From a phage: 64,000 nucleotides of DNA. A program made the translations under genes and the position numbers. The notes beneath the pieces are model-generated. The model was not told the DNA's origin, ran no database searches, and saw only the letters and a list, made by a program, of their open reading frames with translations. Below are positions 56,773 through 63,288 of the stretch, piece by piece; positions within the stretch are counted from its first letter, which is position 1, and the number at the start of each line of letters is the position of its first letter. The DNA is taken from sequence record NC_100327.1, one strand, 5' to 3'.

Positions 56773-58329
56773 TTAATTTTCCATGTTGGATATGGAATTA
56801 TCTCTGGTTGATGATATTTTAGAAGTGCCGTTTCCAGTGGATCCTGCAGCCATTCCATCACCAGCCCTACTGATGTCCTGGCCCAAGAGCTTCATCAGCT
56901 CTTCCTGATCCATGTCCTCGTCAAATCTTTCATCAAACCCGCCTACTTCAAGAATCTTATTAATTACTGCAGGAGTTTTTGGCAAGTAACCTACAGCACC
57001 GATCCTCTGGACAAACTTGGAGAAGCTCTCCATGTCCACTTCTTCGATCAGACCAGGTTTCAGTTTAGGCATATCATCATCTTCAAGGATGATACCATTC
57101 AATGCCAGAAGCTGTGGGATAAGATCTTTATTGAAGGCCTCAGTGATAATATCTATATCACGCTGAACAAAATGACCATGGATAGACTGTTTTGACTCAG
57201 ACAGAGAGAAAGATCCGACGTTATCGTTACCGAGGTTAATAAAGCCAGCACCGAAACGGTCAAGAATCGCCTTCTTACGGGCATCAATCAAATCTTTAGT
57301 GGAATACTGCTTACCCATACCGTCAACCCCCTTCAGGGTCATGGAGTAAAGCTCTTTACCAGACTTATCTCTATCAGACGGAAGTATAAAGAAACTTTGC
57401 TCACCACTATGGGCGTTTGCTGCGTCAAGCATAAGGTCTGCAACCATTCTCCCTTCCATTGAATTCGGGTCAATGCTGGCCTTGTTCAAAATATTGGAAG
57501 GAATTTTCAGCTCAAGCACACCACCAAGGTCTTTGGAACAGCCAACAACCTCAAGGTTTTCAATCAGAACTTTCTCACGGAAAGATCTGTAGCAACCTAT
57601 CATTGGCGACACACCTGCAGGGTTAGATTCTGTTCCTGACAGAGTCATGAGCATAAGCTTTTTAGCAGGGATGAAAATTTCAGGCTCATTAAAGCCTTTT
57701 GAAGGCATTGCAGCAAGAGGTCCAGCCCAGCGTGCATTCTGAGTGTTTAGAAATGCATTAGGTGACTGATAAATACCTGTCAGTGTTCTACTATTCTTGT
57801 CAAAGACAAACGGCTCTGATCTGGACAAACTGGCCTGAGGTCGGAATGCAATTTTATCAATAAGAAGCATCCCGGCATATTTACCTTCTTTCTCTCTGCG
57901 GTATACTTTCTCAAACAGTGAAAAACCATACTCGTTAAAGGTAGCTGCGCTTCTTGCAATATCTCGAAGAGTTTGTTGGTTTGCCAAATTACGCAAAGAA
58001 TACTCTATAAGCTCGGCAGCTTTCTTAGAGTCTTCACTTTTAACATTATAAAGGATCTTAAAATCATTGAATGCTTTCGTGATGAAAACATACTTTGTAT
58101 CTAAGGCAGTAGCAACTGTGGAATCACATTTCATAGTCTCCACTGTAGCAATCAGCTGAGGCCAACGCAATTCCTCAACCATCATAGATTGCGATTCTGC
58201 CATAATTTGGGAAAGTGCGCCAGAACCGATCTCACTCATACGAACATTATGAGTTGGTGCGCCTGCGTTCCCAGATTTATTCACAGTTTTGGCTGTGGCG
58301 TTGTGTTTCCTGCGGTTCTTTTTGGACAC
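56773..58329 (-). CDS. portal protein
   Basis: 518 aa, immediately downstream of terminase large subunit and upstream of protease/scaffold/capsid genes. Confidence 0.7.
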   Translation of the reverse strand: MSKKNRRKHNATAKTVNKSGNAGAPTHNVRMSEIGSGALSQIMAESQSMMVEELRWPQLIATVETMKCDSTVATALDTKYVFITKAFNDFKILYNVKSEDSKKAAELIEYSLRNLANQQTLRDIARSAATFNEYGFSLFEKVYRREKEGKYAGMLLIDKIAFRPQASLSRSEPFVFDKNSRTLTGIYQSPNAFLNTQNARWAGPLAAMPSKGFNEPEIFIPAKKLMLMTLSGTESNPAGVSPMIGCYRSFREKVLIENLEVVGCSKDLGGVLELKIPSNILNKASIDPNSMEGRMVADLMLDAANAHSGEQSFFILPSDRDKSGKELYSMTLKGVDGMGKQYSTKDLIDARKKAILDRFGAGFINLGNDNVGSFSLSESKQSIHGHFVQRDIDIITEAFNKDLIPQLLALNGIILEDDDMPKLKPGLIEEVDMESFSKFVQRIGAVGYLPKTPAVINKILEVGGFDERFDEDMDQEELMKLLGQDISRAGDGMAAGSTGNGTSKISSTRDNSISNMEN

Positions 58330-58351
58330 AAGCTTTACCCCTCAAAACAGT

Positions 58352-58381
58352 ATAACAAAATAGCCCTCGTGTTAGAGGGCT
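58352..58381 (-). terminator. hairpin with U-rich tail between terminase and portal genes
   Basis: AGCCCUC-N6-GAGGGCU stem followed by AUUUUGUUAUA on minus RNA. Confidence 0.35.
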
Positions 58382-58431
58382 AGTATCTCCGATTACTCTA
58401 TTCTACCACATCTAATTAAGATTGGCAACAC

Positions 58432-59217
58432 TTAGATAAAACGCTTGAACATAGAAGGTGATGAGATTGATGGAATCACACAAGGAAGTGCTACCTCCTC
58501 TTTCTCCAGGAAATTAATCGCAGAAGCTACACAGTCAGCCCAGTCGTCTTTTCTGTTAAATGTTGATCTTTCCCCGTTGAATTTTTCAAGTTCGGTCAGA
58601 AATGCTTCCAGAGTATCAGGATGGAAACTGGATTTTACAATCCTTACCATTCCTTGTTGGGCAAGATTGGCAAAAGGTGAGAACCTTGTCAGTTTAGACT
58701 TGTTGGAAGGCATTGGGTCTTCTTCAACCCTAAACCCTTCGGCGAGCAAGGATCTGGAGGAGGTTAAGAACTCACTCTTACCTGCCTGACCGGGGTCCAC
58801 AGAGAATACGATTATACAATCATCACCATCAAACTGCGCCTGTTTCCTGATGATCACATCTCGTTCACCAGCCTTTTTACAGAACTTGCCTTCCAGACCT
58901 GTGGAATACCTCCCGTCATCCACGTTCTCAGGACAATAATCACCGGACAGGTAATAAAAGCCGTCGCTATCTTTACTTACCTTAACACTGGCGGTAAAGT
59001 CAGGAAATTTATTACCGGAAGTTCTCTCGGTTCCTGCCTTATCCCATGCCCTGCAAGATACTGACCCAAGAGGTACTCTATCGGCATCACGAAGGAAAGA
59101 TCTTTGAAAATAGTTTGCACCCTCAGGCTTTGCAAACCAGTTACCATGGAGAAGCTGAGCTTTTTCCAGCTCTGGTAGACCTTCGAGGAAAGCAAGGTAT
59201 TCTGGGTTGTCTCTCAA
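58432..59217 (-). CDS. terL: terminase large subunit, exon 3 (C-terminal nuclease domain); 5' boundary approximate
   Basis: 261-aa frame with RNaseH-like nuclease motifs; separated from upstream terminase fragment by intron 2. Confidence 0.7.
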   Translation of the reverse strand: MRDNPEYLAFLEGLPELEKAQLLHGNWFAKPEGANYFQRSFLRDADRVPLGSVSCRAWDKAGTERTSGNKFPDFTASVKVSKDSDGFYYLSGDYCPENVDDGRYSTGLEGKFCKKAGERDVIIRKQAQFDGDDCIIVFSVDPGQAGKSEFLTSSRSLLAEGFRVEEDPMPSNKSKLTRFSPFANLAQQGMVRIVKSSFHPDTLEAFLTELEKFNGERSTFNRKDDWADCVASAINFLEKEEVALPCVIPSISSPSMFKRFI

Positions 59218-60211
59218 ACAGACAGGATTATCGAATCCTTATATTCAAAGGTGGTCGCAACACCACCCTCCGCACCATTACGTGCTGCTGCATGTTACCA
59301 TGCAGAGTAGACTATATCACCACCCATCTCAGGGTGCTTCGCTTTTCGAGCGCCATAAGCTTGCGCCCTACTCCCTCTCGGGATAGTCGTTGAACTACAT
59401 TACCAATCGTAATTGTTTGAAATATAGGTGTAAGTCTTACGGTCTTTTATTCCTTTAACAACACTAAAACTTACTCCCCACTTCTTAGCTATTTTATTTA
59501 CACACAAAACCCTATCACTAAGATCCTCGCAGATACCTATTATCTTGTGCTCACTTATCCTATTAGAGGTTGGCACTTTTCTAAAGTTAAACTCTTTAGA
59601 AATATCTGGGTATACTGAGCCATTCTTTATACCACTTACAAGTGGTTGATTGACACCAAACATTTCACAAATGTCTTTTACCCTTGCACCTTGCTCTAAC
59701 AGCCTACATATTTCAAGAGCAGTGGCATCATCTAGGGACCTGTATTTATTGACATAGTCCTTTTTAAGTCCCATTTCATGAGCGTGATGTGTGTTTTCCT
59801 CAGGCGTTGTCCACTCAAGGTTCCATGCGGCGTTATTCAACTTATTACCATCCAGGTGGTTTACTTGAGTTTTCACGCTGGGATTATCATTATCAACAAA
59901 AGTCATAGCGATAACTCTATGGACTAGCACTTGGAACTTTTTCCCGCCCTCGCACAAAGTGACCATAGCATAGCCAGTCTTTTTCTGCACATTAGGATGG
60001 AGGAATTTATTAGAATACAGACTGTAAATTCTGCCATCGTATGTAGCACAATAATGATTGTAGCCTAAAAAGCCTAAATTTCTCATTTCAAACATCTCCC
60101 TACTACAGGTTCGGAAGGGTAATTATAGCTGCTGATTGTCCGTTTAGCAATCGGATTTTCCAGCAATTAACGAAGTTATTCGACGTGCATTTCTGCACGA
60201 AGCCACTATCA
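59218..60211 (-). mobile_element. group I intron 2 in terL, carrying an HNH homing endonuclease ORF; boundaries approximate
   Basis: Minus-strand core elements P-like AATTGCTGGAAA (plus 60153-60170), Q AATCAGCAGC (60128-60137), R GTTCAACGACTATCC (59381-59395), S GATATAGTCTAC (59307-59318). Confidence 0.7.
59400..60095 (-). CDS. HNH homing endonuclease (intron-encoded)
   Basis: 231 aa; HNH motif VNHLDGNKLNNAAWNLEWTTPEEN; ORF sits between Q and R elements of intron 2. Confidence 0.75.
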   Translation of the reverse strand: MFEMRNLGFLGYNHYCATYDGRIYSLYSNKFLHPNVQKKTGYAMVTLCEGGKKFQVLVHRVIAMTFVDNDNPSVKTQVNHLDGNKLNNAAWNLEWTTPEENTHHAHEMGLKKDYVNKYRSLDDATALEICRLLEQGARVKDICEMFGVNQPLVSGIKNGSVYPDISKEFNFRKVPTSNRISEHKIIGICEDLSDRVLCVNKIAKKWGVSFSVVKGIKDRKTYTYISNNYDW

Positions 60212-60499
60212 TTTAATGGTTGCGCCTATAAACGAGAATGACAACGGTCTTGGCTTGATCTCCACACCCAGTCCGTTAACCGTGGTGTATTTCTCTATCA
60301 ACTCTTCTTTAGAGTCTCCCCAGATAAATTCACCGTCGCGTCGGATAAAATATCTTTTCTTACCGCATTTCTCCGGATCTGGATACCCTTCATCGTCCAA
60401 CCACCATCTAACCAGTTTGGCAAGCATGTGTTCTGAATCGGGGTTACAGCTGATAACCATTCTTGATGGATACTTTGACTGAGATCGCAGACGAGACAT
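60209..60499 (-). CDS. terL: terminase large subunit, exon 2 (middle segment); both boundaries approximate
   Basis: 96-aa frame flanked by intron core elements on both sides; frame open upstream of first ATG; stop at 60209 probably intronic. Confidence 0.55.
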   Translation of the reverse strand: MSRLRSQSKYPSRMVISCNPDSEHMLAKLVRWWLDDEGYPDPEKCGKKRYFIRRDGEFIWGDSKEELIEKYTTVNGLGVEIKPRPLSFSFIGATIK

Positions 60500-61415
60500 C
60501 AGGTAGTCTATCTGCTCCCATTCGAACTGTGTCGTTTATGTTCGGGCAAGGTCGCTAGTCTTGCCCCGCCATTTTCAGGCAGCTGCATGTCTCCATGCAG
60601 ACCAGACTATATCTTATGAATGTGCAAATACTCTGCCGCTCTAAGAATAGTTTCCTCATCCTCTTGGAAGAAACCTAAAGCTCTGTTGCATTTATCACAA
60701 AGCAACCCTCTTACAGCACCAGTTTTATGGTCATGATCAACACAAAAGAAATCTCTGTACCCTTGCGTCCTATACTCATCAAGAGATATTCTACAAATGG
60801 CACACTTATGATCTTGATCTGAGAGTAGACGATAGTATTCATCTTTTGTTATGTGAAATTTCTTCTCAATCTGATAAAACTTTTCACACATCTTACACCT
60901 GTTCGTAACCAGATATACTTTACCATAGTCACGTTTTGTGTAAAAACTATCAGCGAGCATACTTTCATGACAAGATTTGCATTCAAAAAGTTCACCTTTC
61001 TTCAGCAAGTCTTGAATAAATAATGCTGCGTCATCTCTCTTAACCATATTTTTGTTTCTACGAGATCCACCATTCCTGTAGTACATATAGCATTCCTTGC
61101 ATGTACCTGAGTATCCATCCTTGCTCTTAGATGATAAAAAGAAATCATCAATAGGTAGAACTCTTTGGCAATCCATACATTTTTTAGTATTACACATTCA
61201 CCCTCCCGTTTCGAATCGCTTGATTCTACGTCTTTCGACTAGTCGTTGAACGTTCATCCTCTCGGATGCTTCGCTGCGGATTATCTAAATTAACACACTG
61301 TTACCATACCTTCGATCTCTCTTCGAAGCCTCTATCATGTTACCATGACAGGTTGGTGGTGTCAATAATAAAGATTTCCCCGCAATTAGGGAGGTTTTAC
61401 GAGAGCTACAAATTA
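60500..61415 (-). mobile_element. group I intron 1 in terL, carrying an Endonuclease VII-like homing endonuclease ORF; boundaries approximate
   Basis: Minus-strand core elements P AATTGCGGGGAAA (plus 61375-61387), Q AATCCGCAGC (61273-61282), R GTTCAACGACTAGTC (61237-61251), S AAGATATAGTC (60605-60615, overlapping ORF stop). Confidence 0.75.
60607..61197 (-). CDS. Endonuclease VII-like (T4 gp49-type) homing endonuclease (intron-encoded)
   Basis: 196 aa; N-terminal CxxC zinc cluster; signature DHDHKTGAVRGLLCDKCN; C-terminal codons coincide with the intron S element. Confidence 0.7.
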   Translation of the reverse strand: MCNTKKCMDCQRVLPIDDFFLSSKSKDGYSGTCKECYMYYRNGGSRRNKNMVKRDDAALFIQDLLKKGELFECKSCHESMLADSFYTKRDYGKVYLVTNRCKMCEKFYQIEKKFHITKDEYYRLLSDQDHKCAICRISLDEYRTQGYRDFFCVDHDHKTGAVRGLLCDKCNRALGFFQEDEETILRAAEYLHIHKI

Positions 61416-61841
61416 ACCCTCATCGAAGCAAACCATGGTGTACTCAAGCCCCTGATGGTTAAGCTTATCTTGTACATACTCCATATGGCAGTATTTTACA
61501 ACAGCTCCCTTTTTGCTTCTATCCCACTTACCAGTGTTCGGATCAAACCGTGGAAAAATGAACTTATGATCCTTCTCTCTGAACTTTGGCTTAATGTTTT
61601 CAGGCAGATCACTATAAATAGCTACTGCTTTAGGCCATAGTCCACCCTCACCTTCCAACTGTGGGGTTGTTCTTCGGAACATAACCACAGAGCTGTGGGG
61701 GTCATCAATAATTTTAAGTGGCATCAACTGCAAGAGGAACGACTTGCCAGACCCTGCGGCACCGCCGATTACCAAAATATCTGCATCGTTTTCTAGGATC
61801 ATCTTCTGCTTTTCAGAACACGGTCCGTAAATCTTAGACAT
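61413..61841 (-). CDS. terL: terminase large subunit, exon 1 (N-terminal ATPase domain); 3' boundary approximate
   Basis: Walker A VIGGAAGSGKS, Walker B-like MVCFDEG at the end, then in-frame TAA followed by intron P element. Confidence 0.75.
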   Translation of the reverse strand: MSKIYGPCSEKQKMILENDADILVIGGAAGSGKSFLLQLMPLKIIDDPHSSVVMFRRTTPQLEGEGGLWPKAVAIYSDLPENIKPKFREKDHKFIFPRFDPNTGKWDRSKKGAVVKYCHMEYVQDKLNHQGLEYTMVCFDEG

Positions 61842-62128
61842 TAACCTCTCTCCTTTGGAAACAGTGTTCTAATATAGTCTTGCAAAATGATCAATTTAGC
61901 TCTATCATTGCTACAAGACAGATTATTATCCCTCATAATGCCAGAATTCACTGCATCTGGCGCACCTTTCTTCAAAGGCATAGCTTTAGCAGGTGGTTTC
62001 ATGGCACCTTCCGGGGGTTTAACAATCAACCTTCCTACATCCGGAGGGTCAATCTTGTATTCTCTCTCAACGCTGGTTGCACACCCACATAATAACAAGC
62101 ACACAATAAACAGTGTAGCAACTCTCAT
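61841..62128 (-). CDS. o-spanin (outer-membrane lipoprotein, Rz1-like)
   Basis: 95 aa; lipobox LLCGC after signal peptide; proline-rich mature region; immediately downstream of i-spanin. Confidence 0.55.
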   Translation of the reverse strand: MRVATLFIVCLLLCGCATSVEREYKIDPPDVGRLIVKPPEGAMKPPAKAMPLKKGAPDAVNSGIMRDNNLSCSNDRAKLIILQDYIRTLFPKERG

Positions 62129-63184: not shown

Positions 63185-63191
63185 AAAAAGG

Positions 63192-63288
63192 TGCTAGGTG
63201 ATGGAATCGAACCACCTATGTATTCAACGACTACCTCGTCTATTTTCAGGATTAAAAATCCTCGCCCTTGCCAAAGGGCTTACCTAGC
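63192..63288 (-). tRNA. atypical tRNA-like element (97 nt; possible UUU anticodon, oversized variable region); may be a pseudo-tRNA
   Basis: Perfect 7-bp acceptor GCUAGGU/ACCUAGC, D-arm GCCC-UUUGGCAA-GGGC, canonical T-arm GGUGG-UUCGAUU-CCAUC; ~30 nt between anticodon-like hairpin and T-arm; CCA not fully encoded. Confidence 0.35.

Follow-up and report, generated by a model that had tools for sequence, protein, structure and literature searches.

A Vequintavirus large terminase gene probably divided by two group I introns that carry different homing endonuclease genes

The genome paper of the Escherichia coli phage rV5 contains a section, 'Introns in terminase', that describes the large terminase subunit (TerL) as encoded in three segments, one with a homing endonuclease (Kropinski et al. 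2013, PMC3606486). In RefSeq the rV5 TerL coding sequence (CDS; rv5_gp065, 'ORF64ABC') is joined from three pieces. Here we describe the same locus in a 64,000-nucleotide (nt) stretch of phage DNA (sequence record NC_100327.1; the whole stretch is called the window below), where TerL is encoded on the minus strand. The rV5 locus resembles that of the window in its gene, its two insertion sites, its orthologous introns with cores ~97-98% identical, and the HNH endonuclease in its intron 2. It differs in that its intron 1 carries no open reading frame (ORF), whereas both introns of the window are occupied. The two-intron TerL arrangement is already known from rV5 and its relatives and represents no new kind of element. 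For the BASEL phage DrSchubert (MZ501060; PMC8594841), intron 1 is annotated as a join together with a 'putative homing endonuclease', and the JES2013 protein with an Endonuclease VII (Endo VII) motif was listed as an intron-encoded protein of the DHHRN homing endonuclease family (Fang et al. 2018, PMC6083498). Both phages share with the window intron 1 and the same 196-residue endonuclease and, unlike the window, lack intron 2. F-CphI, the only characterised DHHRN family member, is free-standing beside an intron, whereas the DHHRN enzyme of the window lies inside one.

More distant parallels come from other phage groups. I-HmuI and I-HmuII are intron-encoded HNH nickases from the DNA polymerase gene of the Bacillus phages SPO1 and SP82. 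I-HmuI and the intron 2 ORF of the window are both encoded by group I introns that interrupt essential phage genes; the host gene and the phage group differ, and the window protein has an extra helix-turn-helix (HTH) region in its C-terminal half. The td, nrdB and nrdD introns of T4, with I-TevI, I-TevII and I-TevIII, are like those of the window IA-type introns with an endonuclease ORF in a peripheral loop. In T4, the I-TevI ORF is also found in P6, and ORF ends run into structural elements. The T4 introns interrupt other genes and encode other endonuclease families (GIY-YIG for I-TevI and I-TevII), whereas the window has two introns within one structural/packaging gene.

A further TerL intron, that of Pectobacterium phage CB7, has been shown to splice by reverse transcription PCR (RT-PCR; PMC7344957). 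CB7 and phiTE (Certrevirus), like the source of the window, belong to the Vequintavirinae, and they have in the same gene a group I intron with an HNH ORF beside Walker B. We considered the CB7 intron (locus L032, 385-1347) as an orthologue of intron 1 and rejected this, as the two introns are distinct and carry different endonucleases, and that of CB7 lies 6 nt upstream, after an Asp codon (VD|EGTQF). The Walker B region is a hot spot, in which no fewer than two different introns have inserted.

We conclude, with a probability of about 0.93, that the Vequintavirus large terminase is encoded by one gene whose three exons are separated by two group I introns, both of IA type and related to each other but distinct. 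The exon/intron boundaries are shown to the base by natural intron-less alleles: ECML-10 lacks the stretch listed as intron 1 in Table 1, and navn lacks that listed as intron 2. Across 20 aligned alleles, all interruptions fall at spliced nt 426|427 or 743|744 and nowhere else. Each intron is preceded by a U and ends in G. A first-pass annotation made from the letters of the window had proposed three TerL pieces, and these stand as Pfam Terminase_6N (profile positions 2-104 and 117-163) and Terminase_6C matches; the limits that it assigned to them were those of ORFs, and are replaced by the exon limits in Table 1, taken from intron-less alleles. It had also named alignment with intron-less terminase genes as the way to define the insertion sites, and this alignment defines them exactly and restores a 515-residue TerL.

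Joining the exons gives a 1548-nt ORF for 515 residues without an internal stop, and 513/515 residues are identical to P0001, the product of an uninterrupted gene, with the two differences (positions 330 and 332) distant from the splice junctions. On the separate pieces, Terminase_6N scores 25.6 and 19.1 bits; after joining there is one contiguous match of 72.2 bits over residues 25-294, and Terminase_6C matches the spliced protein with 27.9 bits. Exon 1 contributes Walker A (GGAAGSGKS) and Walker B (MVCFDE-G) within its Terminase_6N match; exon 2 starts with ACA CAG (TQFEWEQ...), ends with ...ACC AU and covers Terminase_6N profile positions 117-163; exon 3 encodes the RNase H-like nuclease domain and includes the FDNP motif. 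A contiguous Walker A/B ATPase followed by an RNase H-like nuclease, in the T4-like combination of Terminase_6N and Terminase_6C, is found only after splicing. The spliced TerL has 1669 homologs with E <= 1e-10, and a PDB sequence search with it gave no match.

Both introns are inserted in conserved TerL motifs, whose positions we took from Pfam and a 95-sequence alignment. Intron 1 lies directly 3' of Walker B (MVCFDEG|TQF) and intron 2 inside the conserved ATI|FDNP motif; when conservation is ranked in windows of 11 residues, the intron 2 site comes 32nd and the intron 1 site 92nd of 505. The codons from each junction to the next possible start (TQFEWEQIDYL and FDNPVC) are conserved among distant TerLs. 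In interrupted alleles these codons show synonymous variation only (CAG/CAA, TTC/TTT, GAA/GAG, CCT/CCC, TGT/TGC, TTG/CTA), which argues that they are translated.

The identification of both TerL inserts as group I introns is supported by covariance-model matches and predicted folds. Against the Rfam model RF00028, which has a gathering score of 50 bits, intron 1 of the window gives an end-to-end match of 47.0 bits (E 4.6e-10), and intron 2 matches in two halves that flank the HNH ORF, with 34.9 bits (E 2e-6) and 24.3 bits (E 3e-3). ORF-less alleles of intron 1 reach 84.9 bits in rV5 (319 nt) and 84.1 bits in A147, and the ORF-less intron 2 of C9 and A147 (268 nt) reaches 87.5 bits, so that the group I identity that the first-pass annotation had proposed to check by covariance model is recovered in the alleles without endonuclease ORFs. 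The cores of the window copies are ~96-99% identical to these alleles, and their scores fall below 50 bits because the P8 loop holds an endonuclease cassette of 582 nt and the P6 loop one of 732 nt. An Rfam scan of the window at the gathering threshold, which reported only tRNAs, was a false negative caused by these large loop ORFs, and was resolved by an E-value scan and the ORF-less alleles. In the whole 64-kb window, the RF00028 scan found no group I match beyond the two TerL introns.

The P, Q, R, S order and the conserved P3-P4-P6-P7-P8 core could be located in both introns, and all eight elements that the first-pass annotation had quoted are present on the minus strand in the right order in each. 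Unconstrained minimum free energy (MFE) folds of the ORF-less introns recovered P1, P3-P6, P7.2, P8, P9 and P9.1/9.2 (z = -5.3 and -4.0). The P4 helix is compensatory between the introns (GCGG/CCGC in intron 1, GCUG/CAGC in intron 2), and both have the U.G wobble at the 5' splice site and the terminal G of group I introns. P7.1 and P7.2, the IA hallmark, lie between the P7 5' strand and the P3 3' strand in both, the class being assigned by these hairpins rather than by a formal classifier. Core segments of both introns are 70-84% identical to the T4 td/nrdB/nrdD, phiKZ and SPbeta-type introns. Covariation among the alleles of one intron, which are 96-99% identical, was too sparse to inform, and the P5-extension variants among alleles are a mix of compensatory and non-compensatory changes. 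An intein explanation of the inserts was rejected, because both begin with in-frame stop codons.

Intron 1 has P7.1 (GUC-GAAA-GAC), P7.2 (GAAUC-AAGC-GAUUC) and a long P5 extension, and lacks P2. It begins with UAA, an in-frame stop, and ends with G60533. In its predicted P1, the exon sequence GAGGGU and the intron bases UA are paired with UAGCUCUC, which places the U.G wobble at the 5' splice site (U61416). Its core elements are P (61387-61375), Q (61282-61273), R (61251-61237) and S (60615-60605). Where the window has 61199-60618, the 582-nt Endo VII cassette in the P8 loop, rV5 has an 18-nt hairpin, AAGCGATTGTTGTCGCTT.

Codon 248 (AU|A, Ile) is interrupted by intron 2, whose in-frame stop comes two codons in and whose last base is G59237. 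Its P1 is predicted to pair CCAU|UA with UAGUGG, again with a U.G wobble at the splice site, and its core elements are P (60168-60157), Q (60137-60128), R (59395-59381) and S (59318-59307), with P7.1 and P7.2 formed by UCCC-GAGA-GGGA and GGGCGC...GCGCUC. C9 and A147 have 21 nt where the window has the 732-nt cassette in the P6 loop (60127-59396). Outside the window, the anaerobic ribonucleotide reductase gene of Vequintavirus navn (MN850642 66060-66191, hit H140) contains a sequence with 78% identity to intron 2 in its 3' half, which suggests a related intron in nrdD of that phage.

Following transcription, each intron would be expected to fold into a group I core (P1, P3-P9 and P7.1/P7.2) and to excise itself by the two-step guanosine-initiated reaction, at the P1 U.G pair and after the terminal G, which would yield an mRNA for the 515-residue TerL. 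The stop codon at or just inside the 5' end of each intron would halt ribosomes that read in from the exon. We infer that self-splicing of both introns is guanosine-dependent and that their splicing is obligatory, the latter with good support from the sequence.

Table 1. Positions of the TerL exons, the predicted introns and their ORFs, and the downstream terminator in the window.
Feature	Position	Strand	Description	Basis
TerL exon 1	61416..61841	(-)	codons 1-142; ends ...GAG GGU	boundary from intron-less ECML-10 and 20 aligned alleles
Group I intron 1	60533..61415	(-)	883 nt, IA-type	Rfam RF00028 and ORF-less rV5 allele
P1 of intron 1	61401..61421	(-)		cmscan alignment and MFE fold
Putative Endo VII-motif homing endonuclease	60607..61197	(-)	DHHRN-type, His-Me finger; 196 residues; intron 1 P8 loop	PF02945
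TerL exon 2	60216..60532	(-)	codon 143 to first two bases of codon 248	allele alignments
Group I intron 2	59237..60215	(-)	979 nt, IA-type with P2, P7.1 and P7.2	RF00028 halves; ORF-less C9/A147 alleles
Putative I-HmuI-like HNH homing endonuclease	59400..60095	(-)	C-terminal HTH; 231 residues from first AUG; intron 2 P6 loop	
TerL exon 3	58432..59236	(-)	third base of codon 248 to stop	allele alignments; Pfam Terminase_6C
Intrinsic terminator 3' of TerL	58361..58382	(-)	rV5 annotates a Rho-independent terminator at the equivalent place	terminator scan

The two introns encode different endonucleases in different loops, as the first-pass annotation had stated. We place the Endo VII-like ORF in P8 of intron 1 and the HNH ORF in P6 of intron 2. 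The intron 1 ORF matches Endonuclease_7 (PF02945) with 76 bits (E 2e-21) and also the 'endonuclease VII' families of PHROG; its PDB matches are the restriction enzyme Hpy99I (E 1e-5), along almost the entire length, and T4 Endo VII (E 6e-4). It has N-terminal CxxC pairs and the motif CAIC-x18-DHDH-x5-R-x3-CDKCN at residues 132-171 of 196. This agrees with the C-terminal DHHRN motif CX2-4C ... DHDH ... R ... CX2C-N, whose C-terminal location defines the endonuclease clade (PMC6083498). The intron 2 ORF matches HNH_3 (PF13392) with 28.0 bits (cut-off 24.8), has an HTH domain, and matches phrog_59 (E 8e-51) and I-HmuI (PDB 1U3E; E 4e-12, residues 11-154). Its HNH segment VNHLDGNKLNNAAWNLEW aligns to VDHKDGNKDNNLSTNLRW of I-HmuI and carries the HNH (His-Me finger) motif. 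Its start is more likely the second AUG, at 60086, because of the alignment numbering and the Shine-Dalgarno spacing. A comparison of the two endonuclease proteins found no detectable similarity, which argues that neither arose by duplication of the other.

Both ORFs are woven into the predicted ribozyme structures. The Shine-Dalgarno sequence of the Endo VII ORF, GGGAGG (61207-61202), is also the P3 3' strand, its AUG lies inside the P8 5' strand (GAAUGUG, 61199-61193), and its last codons form the P8 3' strand (60624-60618). Its stop lies inside the S element, as had been proposed: the UAG at 60609-60607 is part of the P7 3' strand (UAGUC, 60609-60605). Folding of the intron 1 ribozyme and translation of the endonuclease may be mutually exclusive. 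The HNH ORF is enclosed by a 10-bp P6 stem, with its UAA stop (59402-59400) inside the P6 3' strand GGUAAUGUAG (59404-59395). The P8 and P6 stems differ between ORF-bearing and ORF-less versions, pointing to cassette replacement rather than simple deletion.

A promoter scan returned 13 sigma-70-like sites, within the expectation from shuffled sequence (8.8 +/- 3.2), and showed no enrichment. One such site lies upstream of the HNH ORF (60150-60122, minus strand, TTGCTA-17-TATAAT), with its TATAAT -10 box in the first bases of the cassette and absent from the ORF-less intron 2. Another lies upstream of the Endo VII ORF (61365-61337, minus strand, TTGACA-17-(TG)TAACAT), in the P5 extension of intron 1.

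We classified the intron states in the population by the record spans of 50 full-length records, sampled at even spacing. No intron was present in 29. Single introns were found as ORF-less intron 1 (5 records), ORF-less intron 2 (1), intron 1 with Endo VII (8) and intron 2 with HNH (1). Both introns were ORF-less in 2 records, 1 had the rV5 state of an ORF-less intron 1 and an HNH-bearing intron 2, and 3 had both endonucleases, as in the window. Thus 8/9 possible combinations of absent, ORF-less and endonuclease-bearing introns occur among the relatives, and introns and endonuclease genes are present or absent independently among genomes that are 95-99% identical. The double-endonuclease state of the window was found in six records in the whole collection. 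An IMG/VR scan (15 loci, 4 close relatives) held too few loci for a population tally, and GenBank loci were used instead.

The exon bases beside the introns track intron presence in 20/20 alleles at each site. At site 1, GGT| is found in 10/10 intron-bearing alleles and |ACA in 9/10 of them, and all 10/10 intron-less alleles combine |ACG with a preceding GGC or GGA. The sequence at site 2 is ACC AT| in 8/8 intron-bearing and ACA AT| in 12/12 intron-less alleles. These bases are the ones that pair in P1, namely the U of the U.G pair at site 1 and the first C of CCAU/GUGG at site 2, and the pattern fits homing co-conversion acting together with a P1 pairing requirement. In mixed infections, both enzymes would be expected to cut or nick TerL alleles that lack the intron, close to where it inserts, and the recipient would then gain the intron, along with adjacent exon bases, through recombinational repair (homing with co-conversion). 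The endonuclease activity and the target sites of both ORFs are predicted here from sequence.

It is conceivable, if on balance doubtful, that the majority intron-less TerL alleles are cleavage-resistant variants and not naive empty sites, an idea that arises because every intron-less junction differs synonymously from the spliced junction and none resembles precise excision. No product of precise intron excision was found among the sampled intron-less alleles. If this were true, the Vequintavirus population would record a continuing contest within one essential gene, with two different His-Me finger homing endonucleases on one side and resistant target alleles on the other, and the double-occupied allele of the window would be its most invasive state.

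How secure is splicing itself? The alternative is that the inserts do not splice and that three TerL polypeptides (from the ORFs 61841-61413, 60499-60209 and 59217-58432) assemble after translation, as is reportedly the case for Aeh1 NrdA, which is split by mobE. Each TerL piece is indeed an ORF with a possible start codon, many GenBank records annotate separate CDSs, and one HNH-associated insertion in the CB7 paper failed to splice (PMC7344957). We nevertheless consider post-translational assembly highly improbable. Residues 143-152 and 249-254, which are conserved and include a near-invariant DNP, would be missing from the products of the fragment ORFs, yet the omitted codons still vary only synonymously in interrupted alleles; as these codons would stay untranslated without splicing, their conservation is a strong argument against three separate proteins. 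Moreover, intron 2 splits a codon, and translation of the exon 3 ORF would have to start at UUG; both ribozyme cores are intact, with 84-88 bits when ORF-less, and the U.G pair, the terminal G and the co-variation of P1 with the exon would be purposeless. Some observations do weigh against the conclusion that both introns of the window splice: all three of their matches to RF00028 are below 50 bits, the P1 of intron 2 is short (CCAU/GUGG and two intron pairs), and the only intron of the subfamily with RT-PCR-verified splicing, that of CB7, is a different one inserted 6 nt upstream of intron 1. We infer the splicing competence of the window copies, with their large inserts, from their relatives. 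That the three-piece gene is an assembly or chimera artefact of the window can be dismissed, since the architecture recurs in six independent GenBank records (98-99% identity) and every sub-configuration is found in others.

A separate question is whether the introns splice while at least one endonuclease gene is an inactive passenger, the distribution then reflecting ordinary recombination during co-infection rather than homing. ORF-less versions of both introns persist, as would be expected in the decay phase of a homing cycle, and genomes that are 95-99% identical recombine readily. We regard this as unlikely, however, because both ORFs are full length compared with those of relatives and keep their catalytic motifs (DHDH...R...CxxCN; HNH_3 aligned to I-HmuI), and because their conservation among isolates from Japan, Denmark, Switzerland and the USA is 98-99%. 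The linkage of one or two flanking exon bases to each intron is also what short co-conversion tracts that start from a break close by would give, and favours homing by active endonucleases.

A literature search found no paper on the double-endonuclease allele, the combinatorial mosaic or the exon-flank association, and we view the mosaic and the flank association as modest additions to a known system. The Vequintavirus TerL locus offers a compact natural series of two sites, each of which may be empty, occupied by an ORF-less intron or occupied by an endonuclease-bearing intron. The phages concerned all infect E. coli and are amenable to growth and co-infection in the laboratory. This makes it convenient for testing the homing cycle, the length of co-conversion tracts and uncharacterised intron-encoded DHHRN endonucleases. 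Gene callers split the essential TerL into three to five 'hypothetical proteins' (e.g. in phiWec193), and exact splice coordinates allow correct TerL annotation and its safe use as a phylogenetic marker. In relatives, TerL exons are annotated as separate genes, or in phiWec193 as hypothetical proteins. The o-spanin gene upstream of TerL is mislabelled 'putative large terminase subunit' in several relatives' records (navn, naswa, ime).

Two further observations concern TerL itself. Nine distant TerL homologs (P0037, P0047, P0063, P0075, P0084, P0088, P0092, P0105 and P0119) are 659-864 residues long and have inserts of ~150-360 residues at the Walker A P-loop, around residue 30. Three of these proteins, P0084, P0088 and P0119, have LAGLIDADG_3 / Hom_end Pfam domains, and such inserts are probably inteins. 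Different mobile elements have thus entered TerL of this clade at no fewer than three conserved positions. In TerL of Escherichia phage V18 (KY683736; locus L031, ~510-540), 9 nt are duplicated in tandem (GGTTTGCTT) and 1 nt is deleted at a distance of 2-22 nt upstream of the intron 1 site; the frame is shifted and the gene is annotated as two CDSs. This lesion could be a sequencing error or a repair scar beside an endonuclease target.

Judged by its nucleotide identity, the source of the window is a Vequintavirus, an rV5-like E. coli myophage. Positions 58300-62000 are 99.1% identical to Escherichia phages phiWec193 and phiWec196, and more than 100 rV5-like phages of the genus Vequintavirus are 95-99% identical to this region. 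The minus-strand gene order is a tRNA cluster, two spanin genes, TerL, the intrinsic terminator and a portal-like gene. The six independent GenBank records with the same 3.7-kb TerL architecture are phiWec193, phiWec196 and four 'Campylobacter phage' records, in which the features are unannotated; phiWec193 and phiWec196, with a double-endonuclease allele like that of the window, were isolated as viable phages.

Within the tRNA cluster, tRNA-Thr and tRNA-Ser flank a tRNA-like gene of 99 nt (63190-63288, minus strand). It is reported by ARAGORN as 'tRNA-???', with an anticodon of 4 bases, and the Rfam tRNA model matches it with 35.5 bits; it has a long variable arm and the anticodon loop UUUUUAA. 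The rV5 RefSeq entry lists only six tRNAs in this region (Pro, Met, Thr, Ser, Tyr and Arg), and the equivalent of this gene is unannotated there. Finally, 18 GenBank records labelled 'Campylobacter phage' (MG0656xx, e.g. L005 and L006; UNVERIFIED) are Vequintavirus genomes with ~98% identity to E. coli phages in the TerL region, and their host label is probably wrong.

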